Shown: positions 5,867 through 49,968 of the stretch, one piece after another
How the letters are laid out: each line of letters opens with the position of its first letter
Position numbering within the stretch: position 1 is the first letter of the stretch
From: a virus
Taxonomy: Duplodnaviria > Caudoviricetes
IMG/VR virus record: IMGVR_UViG_3300037041_001770
Span: 1 to 50,154 of that record
Direction: 5' to 3' (one strand)
DNA: 50,154 bases
Notes under the pieces: model-generated
The model's database searches: none
Told to the model about the DNA's origin: nothing
The model's input: only the letters and a program-made list of their open reading frames with translations
Program-made: the position numbers and the translations under genes

Positions 5867-8800
5867 ATGGCTGTTACCGAGAATATGTTGGTCGATATAC
5901 AAGTAAAGTCAGGAGATGCAGAAAAACAAGTAATCAAGCTAGGTCAAGAATTAGAGATATTAAATAAAAAAGTTGTTTCAAATAACGAAGCAATCAAAAG
6001 GTCATCGGCTGAATTCGCTCGAAACTCCAGCGCTATAAACATGGCTGTAAACAACTATGATAGAACACAATCTACAATTAAAAATACTGACACTTCAGTT
6101 AAAAAATTAAATCAGTCATTGGCTACTTCATCACAAACTATGGTTCAGTATAATAGTTCGACAGCTATGGCTAACACAACTGTTATGAAGATGAGTTCTA
6201 ATATTAGAAATTTAGAGATGGCGGTAAATTCTCTAACGATGAATGTTCAGTTTCTAATTAGGTCGATTAAATATTTCACAGATCCAAAAGTATTAAAAAA
6301 TATTTCTGATGTTTCTAACGTTCTTGGGGCGCTAGCATATTCAAAAGGAATGGGTGGAACTGCAAACGCTCTAAGAGAAGTGGGAAAATCATTTGATACA
6401 TTATCAACCAAATCACAAAATTTTAGAGATAATGCAGATAATAATTTAAATGATGTAGTTGAAAGGGCTAGGTTACTTAATGAAGTTGTTGAAAAATCAC
6501 CTTCAGCGTTTAAGGTGTTAAGCGGGGCGATTGCTTTAGCTGCTGGTGATATGGTCTATTCATATTCGAAAGCACAGAAAGCCAATAAGGCATTAGATAG
6601 TCAAATACTCACAACAGGTGAAACCAGTAGAAAAACATTTTCAAAATTAGCTACTGATGTTGAAAAACCTGTGAGTGGTTTTTCAAAGATGACAGCAGGT
6701 ATAAGACACAGTGCCTCTGCTGTAGAGGCGTTATCACTTCTTTCTCCAGTTTTAATTATATTAGGAAATAAACTTAAAGAATCAGAAAACGCCTTTATCC
6801 GTTGGGGAGGCGTGATTATGAAAACTATCGGCATAATTAGCGCCGGACTTATGGGCTTTATCGGATTAGCTTTAGGGGCTTTCGCTGCGTTATCAATTTC
6901 AATTGGTAATAATATTTTAGCTTCTACACAAGAGGCTATGGATAAATTTATAAAGTTTGAATCAGTAATGGCGCAATTTAAATTTACGGTTCAAGGATTT
7001 TCAAAAGTCTTTGGTGTTGATGCTGTTGGTTCCATGGAATACTGGAATAAGACAATGCAACAACTATATAAAACTACTGTTTTCACAAGAGAAGAATTAT
7101 CTAAATCAATCAAGCTTCTAATAGCTGAAGGTCAAGTAATTGGGTTAACTGTTGAAGATAATACGAAGCTTCTTGATCGTGCTGCTGATGTTGCTGCGGC
7201 TACTGGCAGGGATCTATACGAAGTAACACAGATGATAATAAATGGTTTAACTAACAATGCTGATGCTGTTTTAGGTCTTGGCATAGATATTAGAAACACC
7301 TCTTTAGCGCACTCTAAATATGTTGAGGAAAGCGGCCTTGCTGTAGAACAAATGAGCGCACAAGAATTAGCAATGGCTAGATTAAATGCTCTTTATGAAA
7401 AGACGGTTCCCTTGGTTGGAGCAGCTGCTAACCAAACAAAAACTATCGCCGGATCAAATATGATATATCAAAAAACATTAACTGATATATCAGTAGCCAT
7501 AGGTCAAACAGGAACAGCAACAGAATTATATTATGCTTCAATAAATAAATTCTTATCAGTTATCAGGGATCTTCCTAAACCTCTTCTTAGCACTTATGGA
7601 AGTTTAAAAGATATTCTAGGGGTCACATTAGTTATCATTGGGCAAATGCTCAAACTTGGTGCTGTAGTTTTTGCATTAACAACCGTATTCAAACTTCTTA
7701 ACTTTGTTCTTAGTTCTACATGGGGAATAACTGTTTCTCTATCTGCTACTCTTCTTTATCTTGGAACTGTTATTCTTCCAATTACGGCTTTTGTTATAGC
7801 TCTCATAGCTTCAATGAAGGATTTGATTGATACCAGCAAAGGATTTGAAGATACATTAAAATCAGTAACCGGATCTTTATTTGTATTTAGTGAAACTGTA
7901 GATGGTGCTGAAAAATCTACATTCTCATTCGCTTCTGGAATAAATAGGCTAATAAATATAGCACTTCTTCCATTTAAAATTGTTTTAATTGCTATAGCTG
8001 ATACGGTTAATATTTTTGGTATAGCGTTTATAAATATAAAAAAGATTTTTACAAGCAATGATAAAACTATATCTGAATATAATAGTAAATTAAATATTCT
8101 TTGGAGTAGGTTAAGAGATCTATCTAATGCTACCGGAAAAGCATTTAAGGCACTTGACTTTTTTTCTGAATCTTCAGCATTAGCGGCTTCTAAAACAAAA
8201 GAATTAATTGATACACAGGAAAAAGGAGCTAACTTAACTCAAAAATATAAAGAGAGAGTTTTAAAGCTTGCTGCTGCGATTAATGAGGGATTTGATAAGG
8301 GAATCGAAAGGCAAAAGTTTTTAGGTAATGAGTTCGATAAATCAATTGCTACATATAAACAGGCGCAAAATGAGCTTAATAATGTATTTAAAACTAAGTC
8401 AACAGATAAAGATGCTGCACAAAAATATGCAGATAATGAAAGGAAAGTTCTACAAGCTTCTTTAGAGATAGATAAGCTACGACTCGATACACTCAAAAAA
8501 ATAAATGAACAAAGAAAGACTTTAGAAACTGAAATTCTTCGCTCTCAAGGAAGAAATATCGAAGCTATAAATAGAGAAAAAATAGAAAACCTAAAAGCAA
8601 TAGATGAGCAAATAGCAGGTCTAAAATTACTTGAAAACTTTAAGCAGGAAGATTTAAAAACTTTAGAAGAAACAAGAAAACTCATAGAAAAATCAAGTGA
8701 TATTAAAGTTGGTGAGGAAAGATCAAAGAGCTTACAAAAAGCTATTGAAGCTGAAAAATTACTAGCAGATTTGAAGAGAGAAAATGCAAGACTTGATAAA

Positions 8801-15851: not shown

Positions 15852-18200
15852 ATGACAGTAGTGTCAAAACTAAAGCTTAACCATCCACCCTTGGGGGATG
15901 AAGGTGGTTCGGCATTGCATACATCAGTAGAGGCTATCTATCAAAAGGTAGGCGACTCTATAAACTCACGCTTTTTTGTTTATGAGAATCTAGCAGATAC
16001 AGCAAGCATTGACTTTGATCACAACTTTATTACCGACTTTGCAAATCTAAGAATCGATCTTTATGCTTACAATGACGTAACTGATGAAATCACGTTAATT
16101 ACTGATTTGTCAGATTGGGTTATTGCTGAAAAAGTAGGTAACGAAACAACGCACGTCAGAGTCACGAACAACACGGGATCGGTTCAGGATATCGGCATTA
16201 TCATCATGCTTGATCCAATCAAGCTTGGTAATCTCAAAAATGTTGATGTTCCAACTCCCGAAGATGGTCAGGCTCTTGTTTTTGATTCTGCTACCGGCAA
16301 ATGGAAGGCGGGGGCCTCTGGTGATGCCTCTTTTAAATTCCAATCGCTGAATGCTGGAATACTTACGGTTAAAAAGGGTTTCTTGTTTCTCTCTTCAAAA
16401 GAGGAGCTTTACGCGGCAAATGATATTCTGATAACTCTCGCAAGTTATATCAGCTCAGATGGTGCGTACTACGGATATATTGATAGGCTTAGACTTGGTC
16501 AACCAGCTATCGTGGGCGGTCGCAAGCTTGTAGCTGTTGATGATACCATGTGGCTTTTTAGCACAACTTCACCGGATAATATCAACTCCTCTCGCTATAT
16601 CGGTGTAGGTATTGTGGTCAGGGCTGGCGGTGTATTTACCACTTTCGCAACTCTCGCGACTCGCCTTCATGATGTTGCTCTTGGGGTAGATGGATCTTTG
16701 GAGCATACTGTTTCATATACTGCGCTTGGTGATATTGGATCGATTGGACAAAGAAAAGCTGGTCATGTTTTAACAAGTAATTCTTTCCCAGTTGCAGCAT
16801 ATGCAGCTACAAGTTTTTTTAATCTTGCAGCGAATCCAAATGATGGCAATACGACCCTAGGCAAAAACCTAACCAACGACAATGCGGCCTTATTCAACGC
16901 GGATGATATTTTAGGCTCAGTTAATGCGGCGGCAACGCTGAATGGGACTAACCAAAGATTTTCAAGCACAAACGCGCATTTTGATCCCCAAGATTTAGGA
17001 AACACAATCGACTTTACAGCTGGCGGTTGGTTCAAAGCTACTAACTGGGCGGCTGCGGCTGGTCTATTTGGGCAATGGGTAGCTGCGGCGCTATCATTTG
17101 CGGTAGGGGTCGATGCTTCGGGTTATCCTTATGTGAAAGCAACAACAGACGGGGCAACAGCAAGCCAAGCAACAAGCGATACAGCACTAACAGGAACGGG
17201 ATGGCACCACTTCGCGGTTAGATACATTGCAGCTTCAAACAAGTTTGAACTGAAGGTGGACGGGGATCTTGTCGCTACTCTCACGCTAGGGGCAAATCTT
17301 TATAACGCGGGGGCTTCGCGGGTCTTTACCCTTGGATCACACCATAGCGCGGCATACTTTGCGGGAGTAGTCAGCAACTTCATGTTCTGCAATGGAACTG
17401 CCTATACTGATTCACAGCTGTCTAAAATTTGGGCAGCAAAGGAAACTCATTACCGCACGATTAGCACAGAATCACAACTTTGGTGGTTGTGGGTGAAGGG
17501 CGAGGGGATTCAGCGCAATGCTTTGGACCGTGTAGTTGATATCAATTCAGATGAGCTTTACTACAATCTTTTTGATATGCCAGCTACCAACGAAATTGCA
17601 ATGAAGCTTTATAATGGCGGGGCCGGTGGAGCTTCAAAGCCTTCAAAGCCAAGGGAACTTGAGCTAACTGTTGATCAACTCGATGCTATGCTGCCTCTTT
17701 CTCATGGCCTCGGAGCGGTTCCAGTCATTCAGTTTAAGGTCAAAAATATCGATGGTGACTATGAGACTTTAAATTCTGGTTCCTACTTTCTTTTGACAGC
17801 AACACAGATAAAGCTTGCGGGGGCTTCGCTGGTTTCGCTGTTCGGTACGGGTGTTACAGTGCTGCTTAATTATTCAACAGGGAACTTGTCGCAGTTTGTG
17901 CCGAACAGGTTTTGGAATAGTTATGTGACATCTTCGAATCAGGGTGTAGCTGTTAATGATCAGGCAATTTTTAACACAACTGGAGGAGCTAAAACGGCAA
18001 CTCTTCCCGCGTCTCCCGCGTGCGGTGATAAGGTTTTATTAGTCGATGGCCGTAGTAATTTTGGTGTTAATGCTTTGACACTCGATAGAAACGGCAAGCT
18101 AATAAATGGGGCGGCCTCTAACTTTGATTGTGATGTTTCCGGTGCGGTTTACACGGCAACTTTTATTGATGACACTTTTGGCTGGTTAATCAGCTTTTAA
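15852..18200 (+). CDS. Tail fibre/receptor-binding protein with LamG (ConA-like) domain and C-terminal T4 gp9/10-like domain
   Basis: FTAGGWFK...WHHFAV...LKVDG (LamG); NTTGGAKTATLPASP...GD...LTLDRNGKLING. Confidence 0.8.
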   Translation: MTVVSKLKLNHPPLGDEGGSALHTSVEAIYQKVGDSINSRFFVYENLADTASIDFDHNFITDFANLRIDLYAYNDVTDEITLITDLSDWVIAEKVGNETTHVRVTNNTGSVQDIGIIIMLDPIKLGNLKNVDVPTPEDGQALVFDSATGKWKAGASGDASFKFQSLNAGILTVKKGFLFLSSKEELYAANDILITLASYISSDGAYYGYIDRLRLGQPAIVGGRKLVAVDDTMWLFSTTSPDNINSSRYIGVGIVVRAGGVFTTFATLATRLHDVALGVDGSLEHTVSYTALGDIGSIGQRKAGHVLTSNSFPVAAYAATSFFNLAANPNDGNTTLGKNLTNDNAALFNADDILGSVNAAATLNGTNQRFSSTNAHFDPQDLGNTIDFTAGGWFKATNWAAAAGLFGQWVAAALSFAVGVDASGYPYVKATTDGATASQATSDTALTGTGWHHFAVRYIAASNKFELKVDGDLVATLTLGANLYNAGASRVFTLGSHHSAAYFAGVVSNFMFCNGTAYTDSQLSKIWAAKETHYRTISTESQLWWLWVKGEGIQRNALDRVVDINSDELYYNLFDMPATNEIAMKLYNGGAGGASKPSKPRELELTVDQLDAMLPLSHGLGAVPVIQFKVKNIDGDYETLNSGSYFLLTATQIKLAGASLVSLFGTGVTVLLNYSTGNLSQFVPNRFWNSYVTSSNQGVAVNDQAIFNTTGGAKTATLPASPACGDKVLLVDGRSNFGVNALTLDRNGKLINGAASNFDCDVSGAVYTATFIDDTFGWLISF

Positions 18201-18211
18201 CGGGGGTTAAA

Positions 18212-19042
18212 ATGAAATTTTTATTTGGTATTTTTCTTTTATCTTTGGGTATAGGTATTGGGCCTCTCATGGCTCAGAATCAGAAGGCAAGCGATAAGGC
18301 TAGCGAAATGGGCATGATAATTCCATCGGGAACCATCATGCCATATGCTGGCGCAACAGCTCCAGCCGGTTGGGTCTTTGCAGCGGGTCAGGAATATAAC
18401 ACCACGGGAACATATGCGAAGCTTTTTGCTGCGATTGGTTCGGCCTATTGTACGAATGACCACGGCGCGGGAGGCTCATGTACCACGGGAGTTTTTAGAC
18501 TTCCTGATTTGCGCGGTAGATTTGTGGGCGGTCGCGATAATATGAACGGCATTGCTGCGAATCGAATCACAGCAGCTAAAACACTTGATGGAACTATCCT
18601 TGGAAAAGCTGGCGGCTCACAAAATGTTGCTGGTCATTATCATGGCCACACTTTAAACATTACTTCGAGCGGTAGCGGTACGGTAACAGGAACAGTTGGA
18701 GGCGCTGATGGAACTCATAACCATACAATAACTGACCCTGGTCATGCTCATAATCAACTAGCAACATATGCAGGGACGGGTGGAGGTGGTTTTGCTGGAA
18801 TTAGTGGAGGAGGTAATACAAATACACAGATTACATCTTCACTGACTTCGATATCTATTAATTCAACTAATTCAGGTCATGGCCATGGATTTTCTTTAAC
18901 AGCTCCAAACCATGCACATGCAAACGGAAACTTTGCGGGAACGGTCGGCCTCGCATCAGGATCAGGCGGCTGTGATGGCAATAGCGATTCATGCAACAAC
19001 CTTTCACCAACAATTATTCTAAATTACATTATCAAACTTTAA
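18212..19042 (+). CDS. Tail-collar fibre 1 with N-terminal signal peptide and HxH needle
   Basis: IPSGTIMPYAG...PAGW...LFAAIG...FRLPDLRGRF collar; HYH/HNH/HAH motifs; LNYIIKL end; MKFLFGIFLLSLGIGIGPLMA leader. Confidence 0.9.
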   Translation: MKFLFGIFLLSLGIGIGPLMAQNQKASDKASEMGMIIPSGTIMPYAGATAPAGWVFAAGQEYNTTGTYAKLFAAIGSAYCTNDHGAGGSCTTGVFRLPDLRGRFVGGRDNMNGIAANRITAAKTLDGTILGKAGGSQNVAGHYHGHTLNITSSGSGTVTGTVGGADGTHNHTITDPGHAHNQLATYAGTGGGGFAGISGGGNTNTQITSSLTSISINSTNSGHGHGFSLTAPNHAHANGNFAGTVGLASGSGGCDGNSDSCNNLSPTIILNYIIKL

Positions 19043-19051
19043 GGGGTAAAA

Positions 19052-19291
19052 ATGAAAGCAAGACACTTCGCAGCATTATCAACATTTATTATTTTCGTTC
19101 TTTCGATTGCGGTTTTACTCGTGGTCAAGGGACTTAAAGACGATCCAAAGCCAACAGAAATTGGTGAATTTGAATTTGAAGGGGCGAGAACTAAAGTTTT
19201 TAAAACTGGCGATTGCCAAGTTTTCGTTACAAAATGGAAGTCAAACGAAAATCCTAACTTTTTCTTTTCGTGCGGCGAGAGGGGTAAATAA
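19052..19291 (+). CDS. Small membrane-anchored protein
   Basis: N-terminal TM helix; two Cys in the soluble part; AGGGGT RBS. Confidence 0.7.
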   Translation: MKARHFAALSTFIIFVLSIAVLLVVKGLKDDPKPTEIGEFEFEGARTKVFKTGDCQVFVTKWKSNENPNFFFSCGERGK

Positions 19292-20103
19292 TGAAAAAAA
19301 TACTTTTACTTTTATCTTTGTTTAGTTCGCTGGCATTTGGCGCGGATCACTTGCTATATGCTCCAAGCGGCAACTTAATTTTAGATGCTAAGGTCGGTTC
19401 TGTTATCAAAGTGAATAAAACTTTGCGGGTCGATAACATCACAAACTTAGCGGGAACAAGCGGCGCGCCTGGAATGGTTCCAATTGGGGGTATGGTCGCG
19501 GTCATGCCTAACACTCATGCGAATGCATGGCAACCACCGGCAACTGGAGTCATTAAAGATGGTTTTATGCGTGCTGATGGCGCTGTTGTTCCTACTTGTG
19601 CTGATTGTGTGATTCCAGCAGGAACCACAATGCCTAATATGGTTTCAAGGTTTCCAAAGGGATCAACGACAAGCGGGACAACGGCGGGAAGCGCAACAAA
19701 GAACCTACCAGGGCATTATCATAGCAATGGAAGTGGTACTAATGCACAAACTTCTGTTGATGTTACTGGTGGAACAGCATCTTTAACAGGAACAACAACT
19801 TTTGCAGCACACCCCCATACACATAGTGTAGTCGTTAATTTTTCAAGTGCTTATATTACATCGAATGGTTATAAATATACAGAAGGTGATACTATAGCTA
19901 GTAATCCACCTGGAACAAGTAATAATAATCTTTCTGCTTCTGTTGGTATTTCATCTGTACCTGCTTCAAGAACTGGTTCAAACTCTGTTACAGGTAATTT
20001 TGGCCTTGTAACAGGCGGCTGCGATGGTAACAGCGGGGCTAGCTGCTCGATAAACGTCGAACCCGCATACATGGAAACAGTTTGGATAATCAGAGTAAAA
20101 TAA
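19291..20103 (+). CDS. Collar-like fibre 2 with signal peptide
   Basis: MKKILLLLSLFSSLAFG-A leader; VPIGGMV...GFMRADG...PNM collar variant; HxH motifs; WIIRVK end. Confidence 0.85.
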   Translation: MKKILLLLSLFSSLAFGADHLLYAPSGNLILDAKVGSVIKVNKTLRVDNITNLAGTSGAPGMVPIGGMVAVMPNTHANAWQPPATGVIKDGFMRADGAVVPTCADCVIPAGTTMPNMVSRFPKGSTTSGTTAGSATKNLPGHYHSNGSGTNAQTSVDVTGGTASLTGTTTFAAHPHTHSVVVNFSSAYITSNGYKYTEGDTIASNPPGTSNNNLSASVGISSVPASRTGSNSVTGNFGLVTGGCDGNSGASCSINVEPAYMETVWIIRVK

Positions 20104-20113
20104 GGGGTAAAAA

Positions 20114-20881
20114 ATGAGTAAGTATATTTTAGCGATACTTTTGTTTTTTAGCGCAGAATTCGCGCTAGCAGGTAAACACAAAATTGCTGTTCCTGGTAAA
20201 GCTGATGTTTATGTGCCGACATTTGAAAGCGATGGAAGAACTTTAAACGTAGAGTCTCTTAATGGTCCTGGTACGGTTCCAATCGGCGGCATGGTCGCAG
20301 TTATGCCAGCGATTCAGTCAACTGATGCATGGCAACCACCGGCAACTGGCGTCATCAAAGATGGTTTCATGCGTGCCGATGGTCACACTATTACGACTCA
20401 AAACGTAGCGAGTGGCAGCAAGCTAAGGCAAGGAACAGTATTACCGAATATGACGGCAAAATATTTGAGGGGTAATACAACAAGCGGGACAACTGGCGGG
20501 GCGAATACTCAGGGTCTTATTGCTGCAAATATTCCACAAATGAGCGGGGCATTTACTTCTGGTAACAACAGTGTAGATCACTCGCATACTTGGTCAACAG
20601 CTTCAACAGGTGGTCATACAAATCATTCTTTTGGATTCAGAACACAATCAGGTTTAACATTTGGCGGTCAAGATGGTAGGTATATGATGCTTGGTAATGA
20701 TGCACCAATGGGAGCTACGCCAACGCAATCTGGTGGAGAGCATTCACATTCTGGCACTTCAAGCGGTATTTCAGTTAATCATACTCATAGTACAACAGTA
20801 ACACTTGGATCAGGCACACCAACAGCAGTAAACAATGAACCAGCTTATATAGAAACAATTTGGGTTATAAGGGTGAAGTAA
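20114..20881 (+). CDS. Collar-like fibre 3 with signal peptide
   Basis: MSKYILAILLFFSAEFALA-G leader; paralogous to fibre 2; HSH/HTH motifs. Confidence 0.85.
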   Translation: MSKYILAILLFFSAEFALAGKHKIAVPGKADVYVPTFESDGRTLNVESLNGPGTVPIGGMVAVMPAIQSTDAWQPPATGVIKDGFMRADGHTITTQNVASGSKLRQGTVLPNMTAKYLRGNTTSGTTGGANTQGLIAANIPQMSGAFTSGNNSVDHSHTWSTASTGGHTNHSFGFRTQSGLTFGGQDGRYMMLGNDAPMGATPTQSGGEHSHSGTSSGISVNHTHSTTVTLGSGTPTAVNNEPAYIETIWVIRVK

Positions 20882-21198
20882 TGCTAAAAAAGCAAACTGA
20901 AATGATTTGTGCTTATAGGAAGCTAGATATAGATGATTTCATAATTTTATCATTTTTATCAAATGATGCTTCGTTCAAAAAAATTTCAGATAAGCTTATG
21001 ATTAGCAGGTCAGCAATCACACACAGGATAAACAAATATAAAGATTTGTTTGAAGGTTTCGATGTTGAGATAAAGAGGTACGGTAAAAAAGTTTGTAGTC
21101 CGGTAGCAATGGAGCTAGCGGATAAAGCTAAAATGTTTCTAGAAATATTATTAACAATGGGAGAGAAAAATGTCACGTCTTGTCATCAAGAAGAATAA
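20881..21198 (+). CDS. LysR-type winged-HTH DNA-binding protein (HTH only)
   Basis: LDIDDFIIL...SFKKISDKLMISRSAITHRINKY; TAATG coupling gives start 20881. Confidence 0.7.
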   Translation: MLKKQTEMICAYRKLDIDDFIILSFLSNDASFKKISDKLMISRSAITHRINKYKDLFEGFDVEIKRYGKKVCSPVAMELADKAKMFLEILLTMGEKNVTSCHQEE

Positions 21199-21565
21199 TC
21201 CTATCGACGGCGGCGAAGCTAACTTAGTTTATGATCCAAACAGTGAACAGCTTCATTATCATGGTTGGGTTAAACTAAAGATCGGACCATTCAAAAAGAA
21301 ATTCCCTTTCAACGGGAATGAAAAAGTTGCTAAAGAGCTGATGCGCTCGGACTCTTTAGAAGCTGGAAAAGTAATCGATATCGAAGGAGTCAAAATAACT
21401 GTTATGGCGATCCATGAGGGATCGGCTACGGTTTCCTTTGACTCTGAAGATTTTGATGGCTTTGCAGAACTCGACACAAAGGGCGAATATCTCGATGTTA
21501 TGAGTGTTAAAGCCGAGGGAAAATTCCAAGGAATTAAACTCAAAGTTGAAGCTTACAGGGTTTAA
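21170..21565 (+). CDS. Hypothetical beta-rich protein, last gene of the late operon
   Basis: GGGAG RBS; followed by a hairpin. Confidence 0.7.
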   Translation: MSRLVIKKNNPIDGGEANLVYDPNSEQLHYHGWVKLKIGPFKKKFPFNGNEKVAKELMRSDSLEAGKVIDIEGVKITVMAIHEGSATVSFDSEDFDGFAELDTKGEYLDVMSVKAEGKFQGIKLKVEAYRV

Positions 21566-21587
21566 AACCTTGTAAGTCTCTTCTTTT
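21551..21587 (+). terminator. Probable late-operon terminator
   Basis: GCTTACAGGGTT/AACCTTGTAAGT stem then a pyrimidine tract. Confidence 0.6.
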
Positions 21588-23907: not shown

Positions 23908-24168
23908 ATGAATAAGTTGTTTTTGATCGGTTTAGTTATGTCGTCTGTATCATTCGGAGAATCGCGAGTCATTGAAGTAAATAGGGATTACCCTAACGTC
24001 CCTGGCGCAAATGAAGCAACAGGGTCAAGAGAGGTTGTAAGAATTGCTAATGGTAACAGAGATATTATTGGCGCTGTTGCCGGTAACATCATTGGTCGTG
24101 GGGGCTGGGCTTCTGGCGTGGGCGCTGTTGCCGGTGCTATCATTTCAAGAGATCCAAACAAAAAATGA
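23908..24168 (+). CDS. Secreted glycine-zipper protein
   Basis: CAGGAG RBS; signal MNKLFLIGLVMSSVSFG; GAVAGNIIG...GVGAVAGAII. Confidence 0.75.
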   Translation: MNKLFLIGLVMSSVSFGESRVIEVNRDYPNVPGANEATGSREVVRIANGNRDIIGAVAGNIIGRGGWASGVGAVAGAIISRDPNKK

Positions 24169-24861: not shown

Positions 24862-25389
24862 ATGAAAATTATAATACCGTTTTTATTGTTGTTTTCTAGT
24901 AGCGCATTTGGTCAGTATTTATATAATGGTGAAACCTTTCCATTTTCTAAAGGGGTCAAATGGGATGGGAACAACTCCATTATTGAAGAGTCCACTAAGC
25001 TACCATTTAGCAAACCGAGACATATTAGGGCGAACATAGTTAGCGTAAATTATTGGGGCGCGGTCGGATATGCTTTTGACAACTGGATGCCAATAGATTT
25101 TTCTAATCATATCACGCTATCTTTCGCACTAAGGTCAAGCGAAAAGGAAACGCTTTTAGGGGTTCAGCTCCACGATGTAAATGGTAAAACAAGTACATTT
25201 GCAAGAGTGGAAACAAAATATAACTATGAACAAATAGTCATACCAATATCTATGTTTAATGATGTTGACCTAAAGAATATAACAGCTGTTATATTTTCAT
25301 TGAGCAAACCAGGGACAACAATACAGCTTATCGATATTGATGATATTGAGCTTTTTGGTAAAAAAAAAGTGAACCAATATCTGGAGTAA
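24862..25389 (+). CDS. Signal peptide plus carbohydrate-binding module (N-terminal part of a frameshifted CBM-GH5 gene)
   Basis: MKIIIPFLLLFSSSAFG-Q; DFSNHITLSF...IVIPISMF...IDIDDIEL galactose-binding-like pattern; ends just after an A9 run. Confidence 0.7.
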   Translation: MKIIIPFLLLFSSSAFGQYLYNGETFPFSKGVKWDGNNSIIEESTKLPFSKPRHIRANIVSVNYWGAVGYAFDNWMPIDFSNHITLSFALRSSEKETLLGVQLHDVNGKTSTFARVETKYNYEQIVIPISMFNDVDLKNITAVIFSLSKPGTTIQLIDIDDIELFGKKKVNQYLE

Positions 25390-26291
25390 TAACCACAAAC
25401 GGTAGAGCAATATTTGATTCATGCGGGAAAGAGATAATACCAATCGGCGTCAATCATATGACAGTTTACACGGATTGGATCGGTACGCCTCGCGATGGCC
25501 TACCCATGTATGAAGAAATAGCGAAAACCGGCGCTAATACTGTCAGGATAGTTTGGAGCTACAAAGAAAACACCACAGCCAAAGAGCTTGATAATGCTAT
25601 TACAAACGCAGCAAATAACAAACTTTTTCCTATGGTTGAGGTTTTAGATAGAACATGTCAATGGTCAAGAGAGGCTTTTGACGAGATTTTATCTTTTTGG
25701 CTTCGAACTGATATCCTTGCGGTACTTAAAAAGCATGAGAAATATTTACTTTTGAACTTTGCTAATGAGCTTGGTAATAATGTAACTACTCTTGAGACAT
25801 ATAAAAGCGAGTACAAAAGAGCTGTTGAGAAGCTTCGCGCCGCTGGAATAAAAAGCCCAATAGTTATCGATGCTCCAGGATGCGGCCAAGATGAAACAAC
25901 TATGTTACAAGCGGGAAACTATCTTATTAATTCTGATCCTCTGCATAATATCATCATGAGCCTTCATTTATGGTGGGTTCCTCAGAATAATGAGAGAATC
26001 ACAAAGCTATTTACCGAAGCGGTAAGGCTAAATATTCCTCTTATCATTGGGGAATTTAGCGGTTTAGCGGTTGATTGTAAAACAAGCACAAATGTTGATC
26101 ATATTTTAAAAATGGCGCGTGATAATAAAGTTGGATGGCTTCCATGGTCATGGGATTCAGCAAATGGTTGTAAGCCTCATTCAATGACAACAGACAATAC
26201 ATTTAACGGGCTATTTGGATATGGAAAAGAGGTCGCCGTAACTCATTCCTATTCAATCAAAAACACCGCCGTTAGATCGCAATGCTTTTAG
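25368..26291 (+). CDS. GH5 glycoside hydrolase (mannanase/cellulase-like), -1 frame continuation
   Basis: GANTVRIV, NFANE (acid/base), IIGEF (nucleophile), WSW; the frame upstream of ATG 25458 encodes the typical TNGRAIFDSCGKEIIPIGVNH. Confidence 0.9.
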   Translation, partial: SEPISGVITTNGRAIFDSCGKEIIPIGVNHMTVYTDWIGTPRDGLPMYEEIAKTGANTVRIVWSYKENTTAKELDNAITNAANNKLFPMVEVLDRTCQWSREAFDEILSFWLRTDILAVLKKHEKYLLLNFANELGNNVTTLETYKSEYKRAVEKLRAAGIKSPIVIDAPGCGQDETTMLQAGNYLINSDPLHNIIMSLHLWWVPQNNERITKLFTEAVRLNIPLIIGEFSGLAVDCKTSTNVDHILKMARDNKVGWLPWSWDSANGCKPHSMTTDNTFNGLFGYGKEVAVTHSYSIKNTAVRSQCF

Positions 26292-27919: not shown

Positions 27920-29104
27920 ATGAAATGGTTTTTGAGTATTTTTCTAGCATTAATTTTCAATGTGGGATGCTCTCACTTAGAGAGCGATGGCGTAACAGTT
28001 TTGAAATCAGAAACGGGAGAGAAGTTTTATAGTGGTTTAATCGTTCCCAAGGATTTTAAACCAACAAATGTAAGATCGGCGAAAGACGGGCTGCAAGGAA
28101 CCCTTCCCGCAGAGTTCGACGCAAGGACAAAAGGATATAAGGCACCAGAATCTCAGGGGAATTGCGGCAGTTGCTGGGCCTACGCCATGTCGGCCACTGT
28201 ACAAGATGCATACAAGTATCAGATGGGAAAAGACTTCGATACTTCGGAGCAACATGTACTCTCGTGCACAAAACCAGGGGAATACACTTGTAACGGTGGT
28301 TTCTTCGATTACAACAGACATCAGAATCCTTTTGGTGGCGTAACAGGCGCATCGTGGCCCTACTCTGGGACTGATGAAGCTTGCAGAACGGGACTCAATC
28401 ACCAGCTTAAGATTAAGCAATGGGCATACCTTCCAGGCGGTGAAAACCCTCCAATTGATGAAATCAAATCAGCTATCTATCGGTGGGGAATCGTCTCTGT
28501 TGGGGTCGCGGCCACAGATGGAATGTCTAATTATAAAAGTGGAATTTGGGAAGGAGACGGTTCAACTGCGCTTAATCATGCTGTTACCCTGGTAGGCTGG
28601 TCAGACGCCGGTCAATATTGGATAATGAAAAACTCATGGGGGACATCGTGGGGCCAAAATGGCTATATGTATATTCGGTACGGTGCTAACGGAATAGGCA
28701 CTTGGGCAAACTATGTCGTTTTTGACGATAACCCAACGCCAAATCCAGACCCAACTCCGGACCCTAAACCAACGCCCGATCCAGACCCAACGCCTCCACC
28801 ACCACCGCCTTGCACACCACAGCCATACGCGGATACTGGCTACGGTGATGAAATCCAGGTGTATGCTAATGCAAGTATAAGGGTAGGAACAAGAGGCCAA
28901 AGAGGTCATCGCTATTATTGGACAGCAGAACCAGCTTTTGATAATCAAGCGGTTCCTCAGTCAGCACAGATAAACTACCGCCCACGTATTACAAAGCGGC
29001 TTACGATTCACGCGGTCACCCAATGCGGCGAAGCTACCGACTCTGTGAATGTAAAATTAATTGGATATTATAAGCAGAAAATAGAGCAAGAAGTTGAAGA
29101 ATAA
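27920..29104 (+). CDS. Papain-family (C1A) cysteine protease lipoprotein with Pro-rich linker and C-terminal Ig-like domain
   Basis: Lipobox-like NVGC; QGNCGSCWAY, NHAV and KNSWG catalytic motifs; PDPTP linker. Confidence 0.92.
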   Translation: MKWFLSIFLALIFNVGCSHLESDGVTVLKSETGEKFYSGLIVPKDFKPTNVRSAKDGLQGTLPAEFDARTKGYKAPESQGNCGSCWAYAMSATVQDAYKYQMGKDFDTSEQHVLSCTKPGEYTCNGGFFDYNRHQNPFGGVTGASWPYSGTDEACRTGLNHQLKIKQWAYLPGGENPPIDEIKSAIYRWGIVSVGVAATDGMSNYKSGIWEGDGSTALNHAVTLVGWSDAGQYWIMKNSWGTSWGQNGYMYIRYGANGIGTWANYVVFDDNPTPNPDPTPDPKPTPDPDPTPPPPPPCTPQPYADTGYGDEIQVYANASIRVGTRGQRGHRYYWTAEPAFDNQAVPQSAQINYRPRITKRLTIHAVTQCGEATDSVNVKLIGYYKQKIEQEVEE

Positions 29105-29156: not shown

Positions 29157-29735
29157 ATGAAAAACTTCAGCACTAAACTAATAGCATTCGTTCTTTTTAC
29201 CTCAACGGGTGCATTATCACAACCAATTTATAATGTAGATGAGAAGGAATTTCGCTTAATTGTGTCAGAAATAGTTAAAATCTATTCACCTATTTTTGAT
29301 AAAAAAGGCGTCGATTTCTGGATGGAACCTAATTGGGGGTCTAATGATGTTCATTTGTATGCTAAAAAGTTCGATGATTTATCCTGGAAAATTGTAGTAT
29401 CGGGGGGCTTTGCTCGCCAGCCTGAAATCTCCAATGAGGGGCTGATACTCGCCATATGCCACCAAATCGGTCATCTCATGAGCGGTAAGCTATCGGACTA
29501 TTCGACAGAAGAAAAATCATGGCAGTACGCTTATAACATATGTTCAGAGAAAATATTCCTTGAGTGGTCAAAAAGGTATAATCTCAAAAAACTCGGTGTA
29601 AAGATTGATGAATGCGAAAAGCTAAAAACAAGCAGCGATGTTTGCTATTATAAAGCATTCGCAAAAAAATCAATCGAGTTTTTAAATGAGAGGCTTTGCT
29701 ATGGACCACAGCGCGCGGGTCAAACGGGTCATTGA
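29157..29735 (+). CDS. Secreted zincin-like protein with degenerate HExxH (HQIGH)
   Basis: Signal peptide; VSGGFARQPEISNEGLILAICHQIGH. Confidence 0.75.
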   Translation: MKNFSTKLIAFVLFTSTGALSQPIYNVDEKEFRLIVSEIVKIYSPIFDKKGVDFWMEPNWGSNDVHLYAKKFDDLSWKIVVSGGFARQPEISNEGLILAICHQIGHLMSGKLSDYSTEEKSWQYAYNICSEKIFLEWSKRYNLKKLGVKIDECEKLKTSSDVCYYKAFAKKSIEFLNERLCYGPQRAGQTGH

Positions 29736-30048: not shown

Positions 30049-30858
30049 ATGTTAACAATTGAAGCCGTTGTAGTTTGTTATAATTACTCTGATTTCCTTG
30101 AGGCGACCCTACCGCACAATATCCAAATGGTAGATAGGCTAGTCGTTGTTACTCACCCAAGCGATAAAATGACGGGAAAACTCTGTGATAAATATTCAGT
30201 TGATTGCATAAAAACTGAGATATTTCACGATGATAACGACAGATTCAATAAGGGTCGCGCAATCAATCTAGGGCTTCAAAATCTAAGGCATGACGGTTGG
30301 CTGATGCATCTCGATGCTGATATCCTTCTACCGCACCGCTTCCACAATGCTTTAAAAATGGCAAAGCTCGATACGACTTGTCTGTATGGTGCTGATCGGC
30401 TTAACACGGTCACCTATGAAAACTGGGAGAGACACAAAAATAGAAGCATCCCTCAGCACTCATGGAGATTCATGGTTAACCCACAAAAAGAATTCCCGCT
30501 TGGCTCACGGCTTCTTCACTTAGAGTATGGATATTGTCCTATAGGCTACTTCCAACTTTGGTCATCAAAAGCACGGCGACAATACCCGATAGTATGCGGT
30601 AGCGCCGAGCATTCCGATGTTTTATTTGCTACCCAATGGCCGAGAGAAAAGAGAGTTTTACTACCTGAATTTTTCGTTTATCACCTGGAAAGCGAGGATG
30701 TAAAAATGGGGGCAAACTGGGACGGGAGAAAAACCAAGGCTTTTGGCCCTGCTGGAACCCCGAATCCTGGCGAAATCCAGAATCCAGGGGGAAAAAAAAT
30801 CATTCATCCTTTCGGGAGTAATGGACTAGCCAAAGACTTTGGTAATCCAACTTATTAG
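30049..30858 (+). CDS. GT-A (GT2-like) glycosyltransferase
   Basis: VVCYNYSDFL, FNKGRAIN, HLDADI (DxD), GYFQL. Confidence 0.85.
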   Translation: MLTIEAVVVCYNYSDFLEATLPHNIQMVDRLVVVTHPSDKMTGKLCDKYSVDCIKTEIFHDDNDRFNKGRAINLGLQNLRHDGWLMHLDADILLPHRFHNALKMAKLDTTCLYGADRLNTVTYENWERHKNRSIPQHSWRFMVNPQKEFPLGSRLLHLEYGYCPIGYFQLWSSKARRQYPIVCGSAEHSDVLFATQWPREKRVLLPEFFVYHLESEDVKMGANWDGRKTKAFGPAGTPNPGEIQNPGGKKIIHPFGSNGLAKDFGNPTY

Positions 30859-32246: not shown

Positions 32247-32570
32247 TTAAAAATCGCAGTTTAATTTGTACCAGAACCATGGACCCATTTTACAATACCA
32301 CTGCTTAGGTTTCCACTGGTCGCAGATATGCACCGGCTCACCTTCGAAATACATTTTGAACTTTGTAGCTGTTTCAAATTGATAAGTCCCTTCGGTTTCA
32401 GCATCGCCAGGGTTAGGACCAAAGTAAAGAAGGGTTCCCGCAGCTCCAGCGGCTCCAATATCGCCCTCAAATTTTGTTTCAGCGTTCCACTTCGGGGCCT
32501 CACAGTAGTAAGTTGCTGAATACGAGTAAGAAGCCATGAGTAGAAACATAAACCCTATTAATTTTTTCAT
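32247..32570 (-). CDS. Secreted Cys-containing protein
   Basis: MKKLIGFMFLLMASYSYS-A signal; four Cys. Confidence 0.75.
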   Translation of the reverse strand: MKKLIGFMFLLMASYSYSATYYCEAPKWNAETKFEGDIGAAGAAGTLLYFGPNPGDAETEGTYQFETATKFKMYFEGEPVHICDQWKPKQWYCKMGPWFWYKLNCDF

Positions 32571-32733: not shown

Positions 32734-33033
32734 TTATTCTAAATCGGTTAGGCGCATCTCTAACATTAGATGATCGATATATTTTTGCTCGGTTTCAGCA
32801 ATTGGGTATTTTAGAACGATTGAAGCATTGGCTTGCATCATGACAGATGAGAGAAGAGTCAAAGCGGTATTTTTTTCTCTAGCATTTGGGCATAACGATT
32901 CAATTGTGATCGCTAGCCTTCTTACTTCCTGCCTTATAAGCTGCATTCTTTTAACAGCCTCCTCGTCACAATCATGATAAGAAAATCTATCGACAATCTC
33001 ATTTAACTTTTCTTTGCTTAGTTCTTTTTTCAT
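32734..33033 (-). CDS. Acb2/Tad1-hairpin family protein (putative cyclic-nucleotide sponge)
   Basis: DRFSYH...IESLCPNAREKNTALTLL..VMMQANASI matches the FxYH...CPxSRExSLA...MWANAxI family pattern. Confidence 0.75.
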   Translation of the reverse strand: MKKELSKEKLNEIVDRFSYHDCDEEAVKRMQLIRQEVRRLAITIESLCPNAREKNTALTLLSSVMMQANASIVLKYPIAETEQKYIDHLMLEMRLTDLE

Positions 33034-33313
33034 TTTTTGTTTCCTTTGAATATTCGATACCAATTAATAGATCAACGTCGGCTGGCGATTCTATAAAATA
33101 AAAAGGTCTATGACCATCAAGGTACATTTCAGTAAGCATGATTGAACCGTCATCATTGTCATAGTAGTACATTATTTTGTTGACGTTGACTCTTACATAC
33201 TTGTTTCCCTGCGCCTCAAGAATGATGAATTTATCTTTATTAGAGGGGCTTGGTTCCTGCGCGTGTAAAGATCCAACAAATGCTAAGGATAAAGTTAAAA
33301 TGAGTCTTTTCAT
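32999..33313 (-). CDS. Secreted hypothetical protein
   Basis: ATGA overlap with tad1; MKRLILTLSLAFVGSLHA-Q signal. Confidence 0.7.
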   Translation of the reverse strand: MKRLILTLSLAFVGSLHAQEPSPSNKDKFIILEAQGNKYVRVNVNKIMYYYDNDDGSIMLTEMYLDGHRPFYFIESPADVDLLIGIEYSKETKNEKRTKQRKVK

Positions 33314-33678
33314 TTGTTGCTTGTCCCTTCTACTTGTCGTCTTTCCCTGCTTTTTTTTCTTTGGTCTAACCAAAATAGGGCATTTTGAAGTCCTATAATC
33401 GCGTGAAAGTTTTCAATGCAAGGGAATTCTTCATTTAGTTCTGAAATTATCATCCTTGCTGCTTCTATCATGGTATCGATTTGACATCCATTTTTTCCAA
33501 ACTCTTTGATGGGGCCTTTTTGAATCTTGAATGAAATCATATTTAGATGTTCAGTAATAAAAATAGGAACCTCTTTTCGATACTGGTCGAATTCTTCCCA
33601 GCTCATACCGTCGGGAACTTTTCTAATAACCTTAAACCCGCCAATTTCTTCAATTCCTTCTAATACCTCTAAAGCCAT
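33310..33678 (-). CDS. tad1: Tad1-family anti-Thoeris sponge
   Basis: FKIQKGPIKEFGKNG...FPCIEN..AI..LQNALFWLDQR..SRERRQVEGT matches the Tad1 FQxG...G...REN...ALxWL..R...R..RxVxGT signature. Confidence 0.85.
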   Translation of the reverse strand: MALEVLEGIEEIGGFKVIRKVPDGMSWEEFDQYRKEVPIFITEHLNMISFKIQKGPIKEFGKNGCQIDTMIEAARMIISELNEEFPCIENFHAIIGLQNALFWLDQRKKSRERRQVEGTSNK

Positions 33679-49415: not shown

Positions 49416-49604
49416 ATGCTTAAATTCTATAGAAAAAGTTTTAAATCGGGTGTTACAATCGTGAGGGAAAAAATAATCACGGGTGGAGTAGAGTCATGGA
49501 AAAACCACCAATTTTATCCGCGCGATAATGGGAAGGTAGCAATTTATGAAAATGAGCCATACCTGCTTGAGAGGTATTCGACCCTTTTCACTGAAGTTGA
49601 TTAA
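49416..49604 (+). CDS. Small hypothetical protein
   Basis: GAGG RBS. Confidence 0.55.
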   Translation: MLKFYRKSFKSGVTIVREKIITGGVESWKNHQFYPRDNGKVAIYENEPYLLERYSTLFTEVD

Positions 49605-49968
49605 GGTTTTACCCCTGATACTTCTCAGTATCGGGGGGTTTTGTTTTGCCGCAGATGAAGAATCATCAATGGAAACACAAGATTTAGCTGGCTCAACTTC
49701 TCACTTTTCAGGAACAGCAAATACAACTTCTGTAACCATTCCAGCGGTAGCAAATAAAGTCATCTCTGAAGTTTTCTTCAAATGCGACAATCAAACACCA
49801 ATCGCGAAACAGTGCCTAATATCGTTTGATGCTGGCGTATCGTGGCTTTCTCTTGGAATTGGGGAAGCTATCGCATGGTCAGCTAAAGGAAGAATCAAGC
49901 AAATTAGAGTTAAGGCTTCAACGGCGGGAGTAACTTACCAGGGGCTAATAAATTATGAAGCTTATTAA
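49546..49968 (+). CDS. Putative exported beta-sandwich protein in the head module
   Basis: IKVLPLILLSIGGFCFA-A signal-like segment (alternative TTG start at 49597); Cys pair in the mature part. Confidence 0.7.
   Translation: MKMSHTCLRGIRPFSLKLIKVLPLILLSIGGFCFAADEESSMETQDLAGSTSHFSGTANTTSVTIPAVANKVISEVFFKCDNQTPIAKQCLISFDAGVSWLSLGIGEAIAWSAKGRIKQIRVKASTAGVTYQGLINYEAY

Follow-up and report, generated by a model that had tools for sequence, protein, structure and literature searches.

The usual view is that virions of tailed phages are put together wholly in the cytoplasm; T4 gp12 (short tail fibre) and gp37 (long-fibre tip), which combine a collar domain with a metal-binding HxH needle, are cytoplasmic virion parts with long N-terminal shafts and chaperone-assisted assembly. 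Exported proteins are also encoded beside tail-fibre genes, among them T5 Llp and phi80 Cor, and lipoproteins of the Llp/Cor type carry a lipobox with an invariant Cys at +1. In lambda, the tail-fibre region encodes the signal-peptide protein Lom (PMC12309495). On the bacterial side, Bdellovibrio bacteriovorus has MAT (mosaic adhesive trimer) fibres, phage-fibre-like trimers with a signal peptide and variable tips; they are chromosomally encoded and about 1000 aa long, in all of them the signal peptide is directly followed by a conserved ~130-aa beta-rich domain, and many end in an S74 domain (PMC10769870). Here we describe three adjacent fibre genes (fibres 1, 2, and 3) in a 50,154-bp genome of a tailed virus, IMG/VR record IMGVR_UViG_3300037041_001770, all of which constitutes the window analyzed. 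Each is predicted to be a short receptor-binding tip that begins with a Sec-type leader, and a 79-aa membrane protein is encoded between the first two.

The window fibres combine features of these systems. Their likeness to T4 gp12 and gp37 lies in a Collar domain (fibre 1), enriched HxH motifs, and the best, though weak, fold matches of fibre 2, whereas at 255 to 276 aa they are without the long shaft and the baseplate-binding N-terminal domain and start with a Sec-type leader instead. They share the Collar domain and a size range with the leaderless MdpB-like "tail collar/microcystin-dependent" proteins, but the latter start directly with the collar or with a classical fibre N terminus. Like Llp, Cor, and Lom, they are signal-peptide proteins encoded in or beside a tail-fibre region; those proteins, in contrast, are small lipoproteins or beta-barrels unrelated to fibres, whereas here the exported proteins would be the fibre tips, and no conserved lipobox of the Llp/Cor type is found in the fibres or in the 79-aa protein. 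Like the MATs, the window fibres are phage-fibre-like, start with a signal peptide, and have a variable tip, but they are phage-borne and about 260 aa long, with only 17 to 45 residues between leader and collar core. Since they are short, lack the ~130-aa domain, and are encoded in a complete virus genome, they are not MATs. No account of leader-bearing phage fibres was found in searches of the main texts of open-access papers; an earlier reading made from the sequence alone (the sequence-only reading) had likewise known of no such phage system. Export signals on tailed-phage fibre proteins appear to be previously undescribed.

The three open reading frames (ORFs) are present with the N termini on which the sequence-only reading was built. 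Fibre 1 (18212..19042, + strand; 276 aa; assigned by ORF, Pfam, and PHROG) has a leader at residues 1 to 21 (nucleotides [nt] 18212-18274), with cleavage predicted after L-M-A; a short QNQKAS linker leads to the Collar domain, and the protein carries six HxH motifs along with two pairs of Cys. Fibre 2 (19291..20103, + strand; 270 aa; assigned by ORF and alignment) has a leader at residues 1 to 17 (nt 19291-19341), a predicted cut after A-F-G, and an N-peptide of the shaft-repeat type, followed by a collar-like core and a hypervariable middle; the protein contains three HxH motifs as well as a CxxC and a C-x7-C. Fibre 3 (20114..20881, + strand; 255 aa; an ORF matching the PHROG tail fibre family phrog_8469 with an E value of 6.1e-6) is 41% identical to fibre 2; its leader spans residues 1 to 19 (nt 20114-20170), the predicted cut falls after A-L-A, and a conserved "GQPDVYVP"-type N-peptide, three HxH motifs, and no Cys follow. 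The n/h/c organization that had been read into all three leaders was borne out: each has a charged start (MK-, MKK-, and MSK-, respectively), an uncharged hydrophobic core in the expected range of about 8 to 15 residues (best 10-residue Kyte-Doolittle windows of 2.69, 2.39, and 2.88, starting at residues 3 to 5), and a small-residue site at -3/-1. An AlphaFold 2 (AF2) model of fibre 2 places a helix at residues 2 to 15.

To score leaders among homologues, we used a strict rule that demands K/R ahead of the hydrophobic core, with the same sequences reversed as the control. Among the fibre-2 homologues (118 clusters at 90% identity), 100 passed the rule, compared with 14 of the 118 reversed controls, and 98 were counted as leader bearing by eye. 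The leader sequences vary freely among homologues while the K/R start, the uncharged hydrophobic core, and the small -3/-1 pair are retained, AFG, AFA, GAG, and AYA being the commonest -3 to -1 tripeptides, and the leader-like feature persists in homologues down to about 30% identity. A second search, against 1.84 billion representatives, was made with the mature part only, which avoids bias from the leader itself. It gave 159 matches at E values of ≤0.001 (clusters at 50% identity), and the rule was passed by 99 of the best 150 of the 159. The pass rate followed match strength: 17/18 at E values of ≤1e-30, 66/88 between 1e-30 and 1e-10, and 16/44 among weaker matches. The failures are fragments, long classical tail fibres (440 to 1951 aa) that carry the tip at their C terminus, and short leaderless forms. 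In a search with fibre 1 (120 rows), the 26 closest homologues all passed, with a leader and a QNQKAS-type linker, and Gln immediately follows the predicted cut in all the closest homologues; the other 94 rows are mostly ordinary Collar or "microcystin-dependent" proteins, many of them so named in their source records, and among these 94 rows 15 passed the rule and about 4 have leaders that look real by eye. The sequence-only reading had proposed to look, with SignalP, for a leader with a cleavage site conserved in homologues from related phages; the rule-based comparison points to such conservation.

The leader also behaves as a separable unit. The fibre-3-type N-peptide occurs in 19 proteins, in 15 of them behind a leader; in the other 4, the initiating Met stands exactly where the mature protein is predicted to begin. 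Because these leaderless forms begin at the predicted cut, the leader is a discrete module with the predicted boundary. Two metagenome loci (L014, 1397-2605; L016, 598-1653) encode such a natural leader-deletion variant, a leaderless 402-aa fibre-3-type protein directly after the 79-aa gene that starts where the cut of its relatives is predicted. The comparisons indicate that the leaders are real, selected N-terminal modules of the Sec/signal-peptidase-I type, which makes export the most economical reading. We conclude that Sec export of fibres 1 to 3 is well supported and probable, with cleavage predicted after residue 21 in fibre 1, 17 in fibre 2, and 19 in fibre 3.

The mature proteins resemble receptor-binding tips. 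Fibre 1 matches Pfam Collar (PF07484) over residues 40 to 105 (E value, 5.8e-14; 52.2 bits against a cutoff of 24) and ten PHROG tail families, and its sole Protein Data Bank (PDB) sequence match is 9cuy_c, a "short tail fibre" chain (E value, 6.7e-4). Fibres 2 and 3 match no Pfam family at E values of ≤0.01. Their C-terminal two thirds can be aligned with fibre 1 (hhalign probability, 92%; E value, 6.6e-7), and a GGCDGN...C motif is recorded as common to them and fibre 1. In addition, two fibre-2 homologues (P0107 and P0116) carry PF07484, and the Atlas clusters nearest to fibres 2 and 3 are Collar/Gp10_C (score, 0.92). The claim of a tail-collar-type domain in each fibre thus holds for fibre 1, while fibres 2 and 3 are tied to it by weaker evidence. 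Searches with fibre 2 were sparse: Foldseek gave no match at E values of ≤0.001 (best, ≥0.9), and a PDB sequence search with profile A1 returned only an unrelated match (E value, 0.67). In a VIA-align scan of 48,161 chains, 9 had Z scores of ≥2, and 7 of the 9 are phage or extracellular contractile injection system tail fibres, including the gp37 tip (2xgf; Z, 4.1). This fold evidence is weak but coherent, and it suggests that fibres 2 and 3 may be remote collar/T4 gp12-like tips.

Conservation within the family has the same flavour. In a 34-row alignment, identity to fibre 2 averages 0.66 for the collar, 0.55 for the C terminus, and 0.20 for the middle; a conserved core and last strand around a hypervariable middle is the pattern of a receptor-binding tip. 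The HxH motifs that had been noticed in each fibre number 6, 3, and 3 in fibres 1 to 3, whereas 5000 shuffles averaged 0.47, 0.15, and 0.35 and reached the observed count 0, 0, and 9 times, respectively; two HxH positions are in the family consensus. The same tip closes the long classical fibres of 440 to 1951 aa. Ahead of the collar, 17 to 45 residues remain after the cut, and no virion-attachment domain is present. These N-peptides fall into discrete types, the shaft-repeat type standing in tandem in some homologues, and three conserved types occur in fixed order across phages. At a related locus (L004), a leader-bearing fibre-1 homologue with 72% identity (5902-6366) stops after 154 aa and may be truncated or frameshifted; it is followed by two leaderless proteins with the collar almost at their start (6581-7444 and 7457-8107), both of which recur in L026.

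The sequence-only reading had the fibres both exported and disulfide bonded. The two close Cys pairs in fibres 1 and 2 lie where it had placed them (C80, C90, C254, and C261 in fibre 1; C103, C106, C244, and C252 in fibre 2), and fibre 3 has none. Across 100 leader-bearing homologues, the predicted mature parts contain an even number of Cys in 86 cases and an odd number in 14; restricted to the 71 homologues with at least one Cys, the count is 57 to 14, and both figures are inflated by the relatedness of the homologues. The mostly even counts fit periplasmic disulfides in fibres 1 and 2, as judged from sequence. Since fibre 3 and 29 of the 100 leader-bearing homologues have no Cys, disulfides are not the general reason for export. 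The conserved leaders support the export half of that reading, and its disulfide half fits fibres 1 and 2 and fails for fibre 3.

Two observations go beyond the sequence-only reading: the leaderless sister forms and the partner gene between fibres 1 and 2. The latter (19052..19291, + strand) encodes a 79-aa bitopic membrane protein, as judged from its homologues, their alignment (A2), and an AF2 model (predicted local distance difference test [pLDDT] score, 85.9) in which a transmembrane helix at residues 3 to 29 is followed by a four-stranded beta-meander. Its homologues form 30 clusters at 59 to 100% identity, the top one being its own sequence, and its conservation far exceeds that of the fibres. 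Alignment A2 shows C55 and C74 to be invariant and has no conserved Cys in the N-terminal 30 residues that could belong to a lipobox. A fibre-family ORF directly adjoins the 79-aa gene in 14 of 17 metagenome loci; where the neighbour has an intact N terminus, it bears a leader in 8 loci and is leaderless in 3 (L014, L016, and L026). The pair recurs in L005 and in a viral contig of 157 kb, where it is part of the tail module. From this linkage, the 79-aa protein is the putative conserved partner of the exported fibres. It belongs to no family in Pfam, PHROGs, NCBIfam, or PADLOC, and NCBIfam and PADLOC (E value, ≤0.01) gave no family for any of the four proteins of the module. Foldseek returned only generic beta-meanders (WRKY domains; E values of ≥0.09) and pilin rows of low probability. 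The idea of a type IV pilin-like protein was dropped: the prepilin hallmarks are G(-1)/E(+5), and these features are absent from alignment A2. A complex prediction with three copies each of fibre 2 residues 18 to 270 and of residues 27 to 79 of the 79-aa protein scored 0.00, which is no evidence either way. In one locus (L027, 1881-2282), the partner forms the C-terminal part of a 133-aa ORF whose N-terminal extension has a zinc-ribbon-like CxxC...CxxC; this may be a miscalled start or a fused form.

The fibre genes lie in a tail operon. The virus record has direct terminal repeats and is classed as 100% complete, and we confirmed an exact terminal repeat of 127 bp. The gene set is siphovirus-like, with a large terminase, portal, protease, major head protein, head-tail adaptor, and a 1738-aa tape measure; no tRNA gene was detected in the 50,154-bp genome. 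The three fibre genes and the 79-aa gene form the 3' end of the tail module, downstream of distal-tail and hub proteins and of a 782-aa leaderless tail fibre (15852..18200, + strand) with a ConA-like lectin domain (Pfam Laminin_G_3; E value, 2.9e-10). The 782-aa fibre matches PHROG phrog_31104 and, over residues 684 to 781, the tail protein family phrog_5939; its C-terminal ~100 aa are kept in sister phages, with syntenic homologues in L005, L012, L015, and L017. Directly upstream of fibre 1, it is a candidate docking platform. A GGGG(T) Shine-Dalgarno motif precedes all four module genes, 5 to 6 nt upstream of each fibre start (for fibre 1, GGGGG at 18202..18206, + strand, 5 nt before the start codon, as read from the sequence), and other structural genes of the phage have the same motif. 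The genes are closely spaced: 11 nt separate fibre 1 from the preceding gene, 9 nt the 79-aa gene, -1 nt fibre 2, whose start codon overlaps the stop of the 79-aa gene (TAATG), and 10 nt fibre 3. A consensus scan, in which the number of sites was not above that in shuffled sequences, found the first strong terminator-like hairpin (12-bp stem and T run) downstream of the tail module at 21551..21577 (+ strand) and none comparable between 15852 and 20881. The order of large fibre, fibre 1, 79-aa gene, fibre 2, fibre 3, and helix-turn-helix (HTH) gene is repeated in L017; in L012 it matches as far as fibre 3, and the HTH gene was not found there. That gene (20860-21198, + strand) overlaps the end of fibre 3 by 22 nt and encodes a 112-aa protein (UPF0122/Mga HTH; E value, about 1e-4) whose position is kept in L017; it may be a regulator that closes the tail operon.

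In light of these features, we propose that fibres 1 to 3 may be late, tail-operon receptor-binding fibres of the collar/T4 gp12 type, each laid out with a short N-peptide or shaft repeats in front, a conserved scaffold of the collar type, a middle that is rich in HxH and hypervariable, and a last strand that is again conserved, with a cleavable Sec/signal-peptidase-I leader in place of the virion-attachment domain. After export and cleavage, the fibres would fold and trimerize in the periplasm of their presumed diderm host, where any Cys pairs would be oxidized and the 79-aa protein might help or tether them. They would meet the cytoplasmically built virions only once the holin opens the inner membrane at lysis, and would then attach as accessory receptor-binding proteins by way of their conserved N-peptides, with the 782-aa fibre as the probable docking site. 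Late loading would be favoured by the late tail-operon position, the leaderless sisters, the presence of the tip on classical fibres, and the three conserved, fixed-order N-peptide types, which are like the docking peptides of multi-fibre phages. The full chain of export, periplasmic folding, and late loading onto virions is tentative, in our estimate somewhat short of an even chance. Its most elaborate form, a two-compartment assembly in which fibres are exported, cut, folded, oxidized, held by the 79-aa partner, and loaded seconds after holin opening, is rather doubtful, and it has a near-equal alternative in which exported receptor-binding tips would mask the receptor in an envelope-type interference.

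Several points weigh against this proposal. The leader rule has a false-positive rate of about 12%, and the leaderless forms at the same locus in L014, L016, and L026 indicate that members of the family can do without export. In fibre 3 and proteins of its type, positions +2 and +4 after the predicted cut are Lys, and Lys so near the cut is unfavourable for Sec export in E. coli. The AF2 model of fibre 2 has a mean pLDDT of only 63.6 (80 to 94 in the core, <55 in the middle), and its best fold match, T4 gp12 (1ocy), is weak (Z, 5.0; root mean square deviation, 3.7; 64 residues). With only about 17 residues between cut site and collar domain, fibre 1 leaves little room for a docking module. A diderm host, and with it a periplasm, is inferred only from the short leaders, a lipoprotein ORF, and the single-domain Amidase_2 endolysin that the phage encodes. 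Finally, we know of no tailed phage that exports a virion part, so the loading step is without precedent.

A trivial explanation for the leaders would be that the starts are miscalled and that translation begins at internal Met codons, leaving the leaders untranslated. Such codons do occur immediately ahead of the collar core in each protein (fibre 1, M33/M35; fibre 2, about M62; fibre 3, about M60), but strong Shine-Dalgarno motifs with 10-nt spacing stand at the upstream starts, the start of fibre 2 overlaps the preceding stop codon, and conservation at the protein level extends upstream of the internal Met codons in homologues, with the leader-like feature traceable to about 30% identity. 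Downstream true starts, which the sequence-only reading had named as a ground for abandoning export, are thus unlikely, and we give this explanation almost no weight. The N termini could instead be translated without being export signals, the fibres being cytoplasmic virion parts whose hydrophobic helix packs in the baseplate or in a trimeric bundle. Tail-operon position and fibre architecture agree with this view, the leaderless sisters would work from the cytoplasm, and the leader evidence is a matter of sequence comparison. A structural helix, however, would be expected to keep its sequence, whereas here the sequence varies and the K/R start, the uncharged core, and the -3/-1 pair are kept; natural variants lack the segment up to exactly the predicted cut, Gln stands right after the site in all the closest fibre-1 homologues, and mature Cys counts are mostly even. 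We consider purely cytoplasmic fibres improbable.

Two further explanations accept export and differ in what follows. The fibres might remain tethered to the inner membrane, either uncleaved or cleaved and then held, with their own leader or the 79-aa protein as the anchor, and act in the envelope, for instance as a lysis timer or a sensor of incoming phage. The tight linkage with a bitopic membrane protein and the less clear cut sites of some homologues, such as that in L009, speak for this, but AxA-type sites are common in the family, and a hypervariable tip with an HxH needle has the features of a receptor-binding protein and not of a lysis regulator; the tethered form seems more improbable still than cytoplasmic fibres. 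The main rival to late loading is that the fibres are exported and never join the virion: soluble or membrane-held tips would bind the receptor or its precursors from the periplasmic side or after release, with late receptor masking, a superinfection block, or progeny kept off debris as the effect and the 79-aa protein as a tether or cofactor. This would be analogous in effect to T5 Llp or to retroviral envelope interference. The leader and export evidence applies equally here, no virion-attachment domain precedes a collar that lies 17 to 45 residues past the cut, and the leaderless, lectin-bearing 782-aa fibre could already be the receptor-binding protein. As the same tip is found on long classical fibres, exported copies would recognize the same kind of ligand, and at least six further leader-bearing ORFs imply that the phage invests in envelope proteins. 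Against this, the genes are translationally coupled to late tail genes and do not form an early or moron-like unit, the three N-peptide types in fixed order resemble docking modules of multi-fibre virions, and the precise leaderless sisters would be cytoplasmic and so could mask nothing before lysis; to our knowledge, receptor masking from the periplasm by a fibre tip also has no precedent. We regard a purely non-virion role as doubtful, though far from negligible.

The fibre family is essentially confined to phages. A survey of 185,579 genomes (one per species) gave a single confirmed locus, L005, a syntenic phage tail fragment on a 10.7-kb contig binned in an Ignavibacteriaceae metagenome-assembled genome (MAG), with a masked stretch read as X in two ORFs. 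The family is therefore not a lysogenic cargo gene. The same MAG has a portal homologue on an 18.5-kb contig (L007) with tightly packed, unannotated ORFs, among which no flanking host gene was identified; the two contigs (C47 for L005 and C6 for L007, in genome G001) may point to the host or may have been binned there in error. Among 301 genomes of the MAG's class, the family was found only in this MAG and in none of the 300 others. The sequence-only reading had also suggested a link to Bdellovibrio and prey binding; this gained no support, the sole genome match being the phage fragment in the Ignavibacteriaceae MAG. Relatives of the phage itself are distant: no DNA relative was found among 50,697 deposited phage records, and the best cultured-phage match to the large terminase has 30.7% identity. 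In a close-relative scan of viral contigs, fibre 2 gave no locus, fibre 1 gave one, and profile A1 gave two.

Elsewhere in the window, at least six further ORFs have signal-peptide-like leaders: 23908-24168, 24862-25389, 29157-29735, and 49546-49968 on the + strand, the last within the head/connector gene block, and 32247-32570 and 32999-33373 on the - strand. Two of these leaders, ending SSSAFG and SSVSFG on ORFs unrelated to the fibres, close in the S-x-x-F-G style of fibre 2, a likeness that counts in favour of host-style leaders on the fibres. NCBIfam gave no match for 23908-24168, 24862-25389, or 29157-29735, and Pfam gave none for the latter two. One further ORF (27920-29104, + strand; 394 aa) has a lipobox ending in Cys17 and encodes a papain-family protease (Peptidase_C1; E value, 8.8e-42). 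An exported papain-like protease is unusual phage cargo; its nearest Atlas cluster is viral (score, 0.96), and Bdellovibrionota appear among its Atlas neighbours only at scores of 0.82 to 0.83, too low to count as evidence though they give a lead. Downstream of the tail module, the phage also encodes a leaderless protein of the glycoside hydrolase family 5 cellulase family (25458-26291, + strand; E value, 9.6e-16) and a family-2 glycosyltransferase (30049-30858, + strand; E value, 7.7e-8), which may modify or degrade an envelope glycan.

Receptor-binding proteins are predicted and engineered on the assumption that assembly is all cytoplasmic. The leaders described here extend to a whole fibre-tip family, being present in about two thirds of the best 150 of 159 clusters, with a membrane partner alongside. 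Host-range prediction pipelines would label these genes tail fibres and overlook the leader, and anyone expressing such fibres recombinantly would probably have to target them to the periplasm. A possible consequence is that part of the virion matures outside the cytoplasm; if two-compartment assembly were true, no particle able to adsorb would ever be present in the infected cell, and the folding chemistry of the periplasm would become available to the fibres. Another is that phages export their own receptor-binding tips to manipulate the envelope. Either, if true, would be a new step in phage assembly or a new kind of receptor interference.

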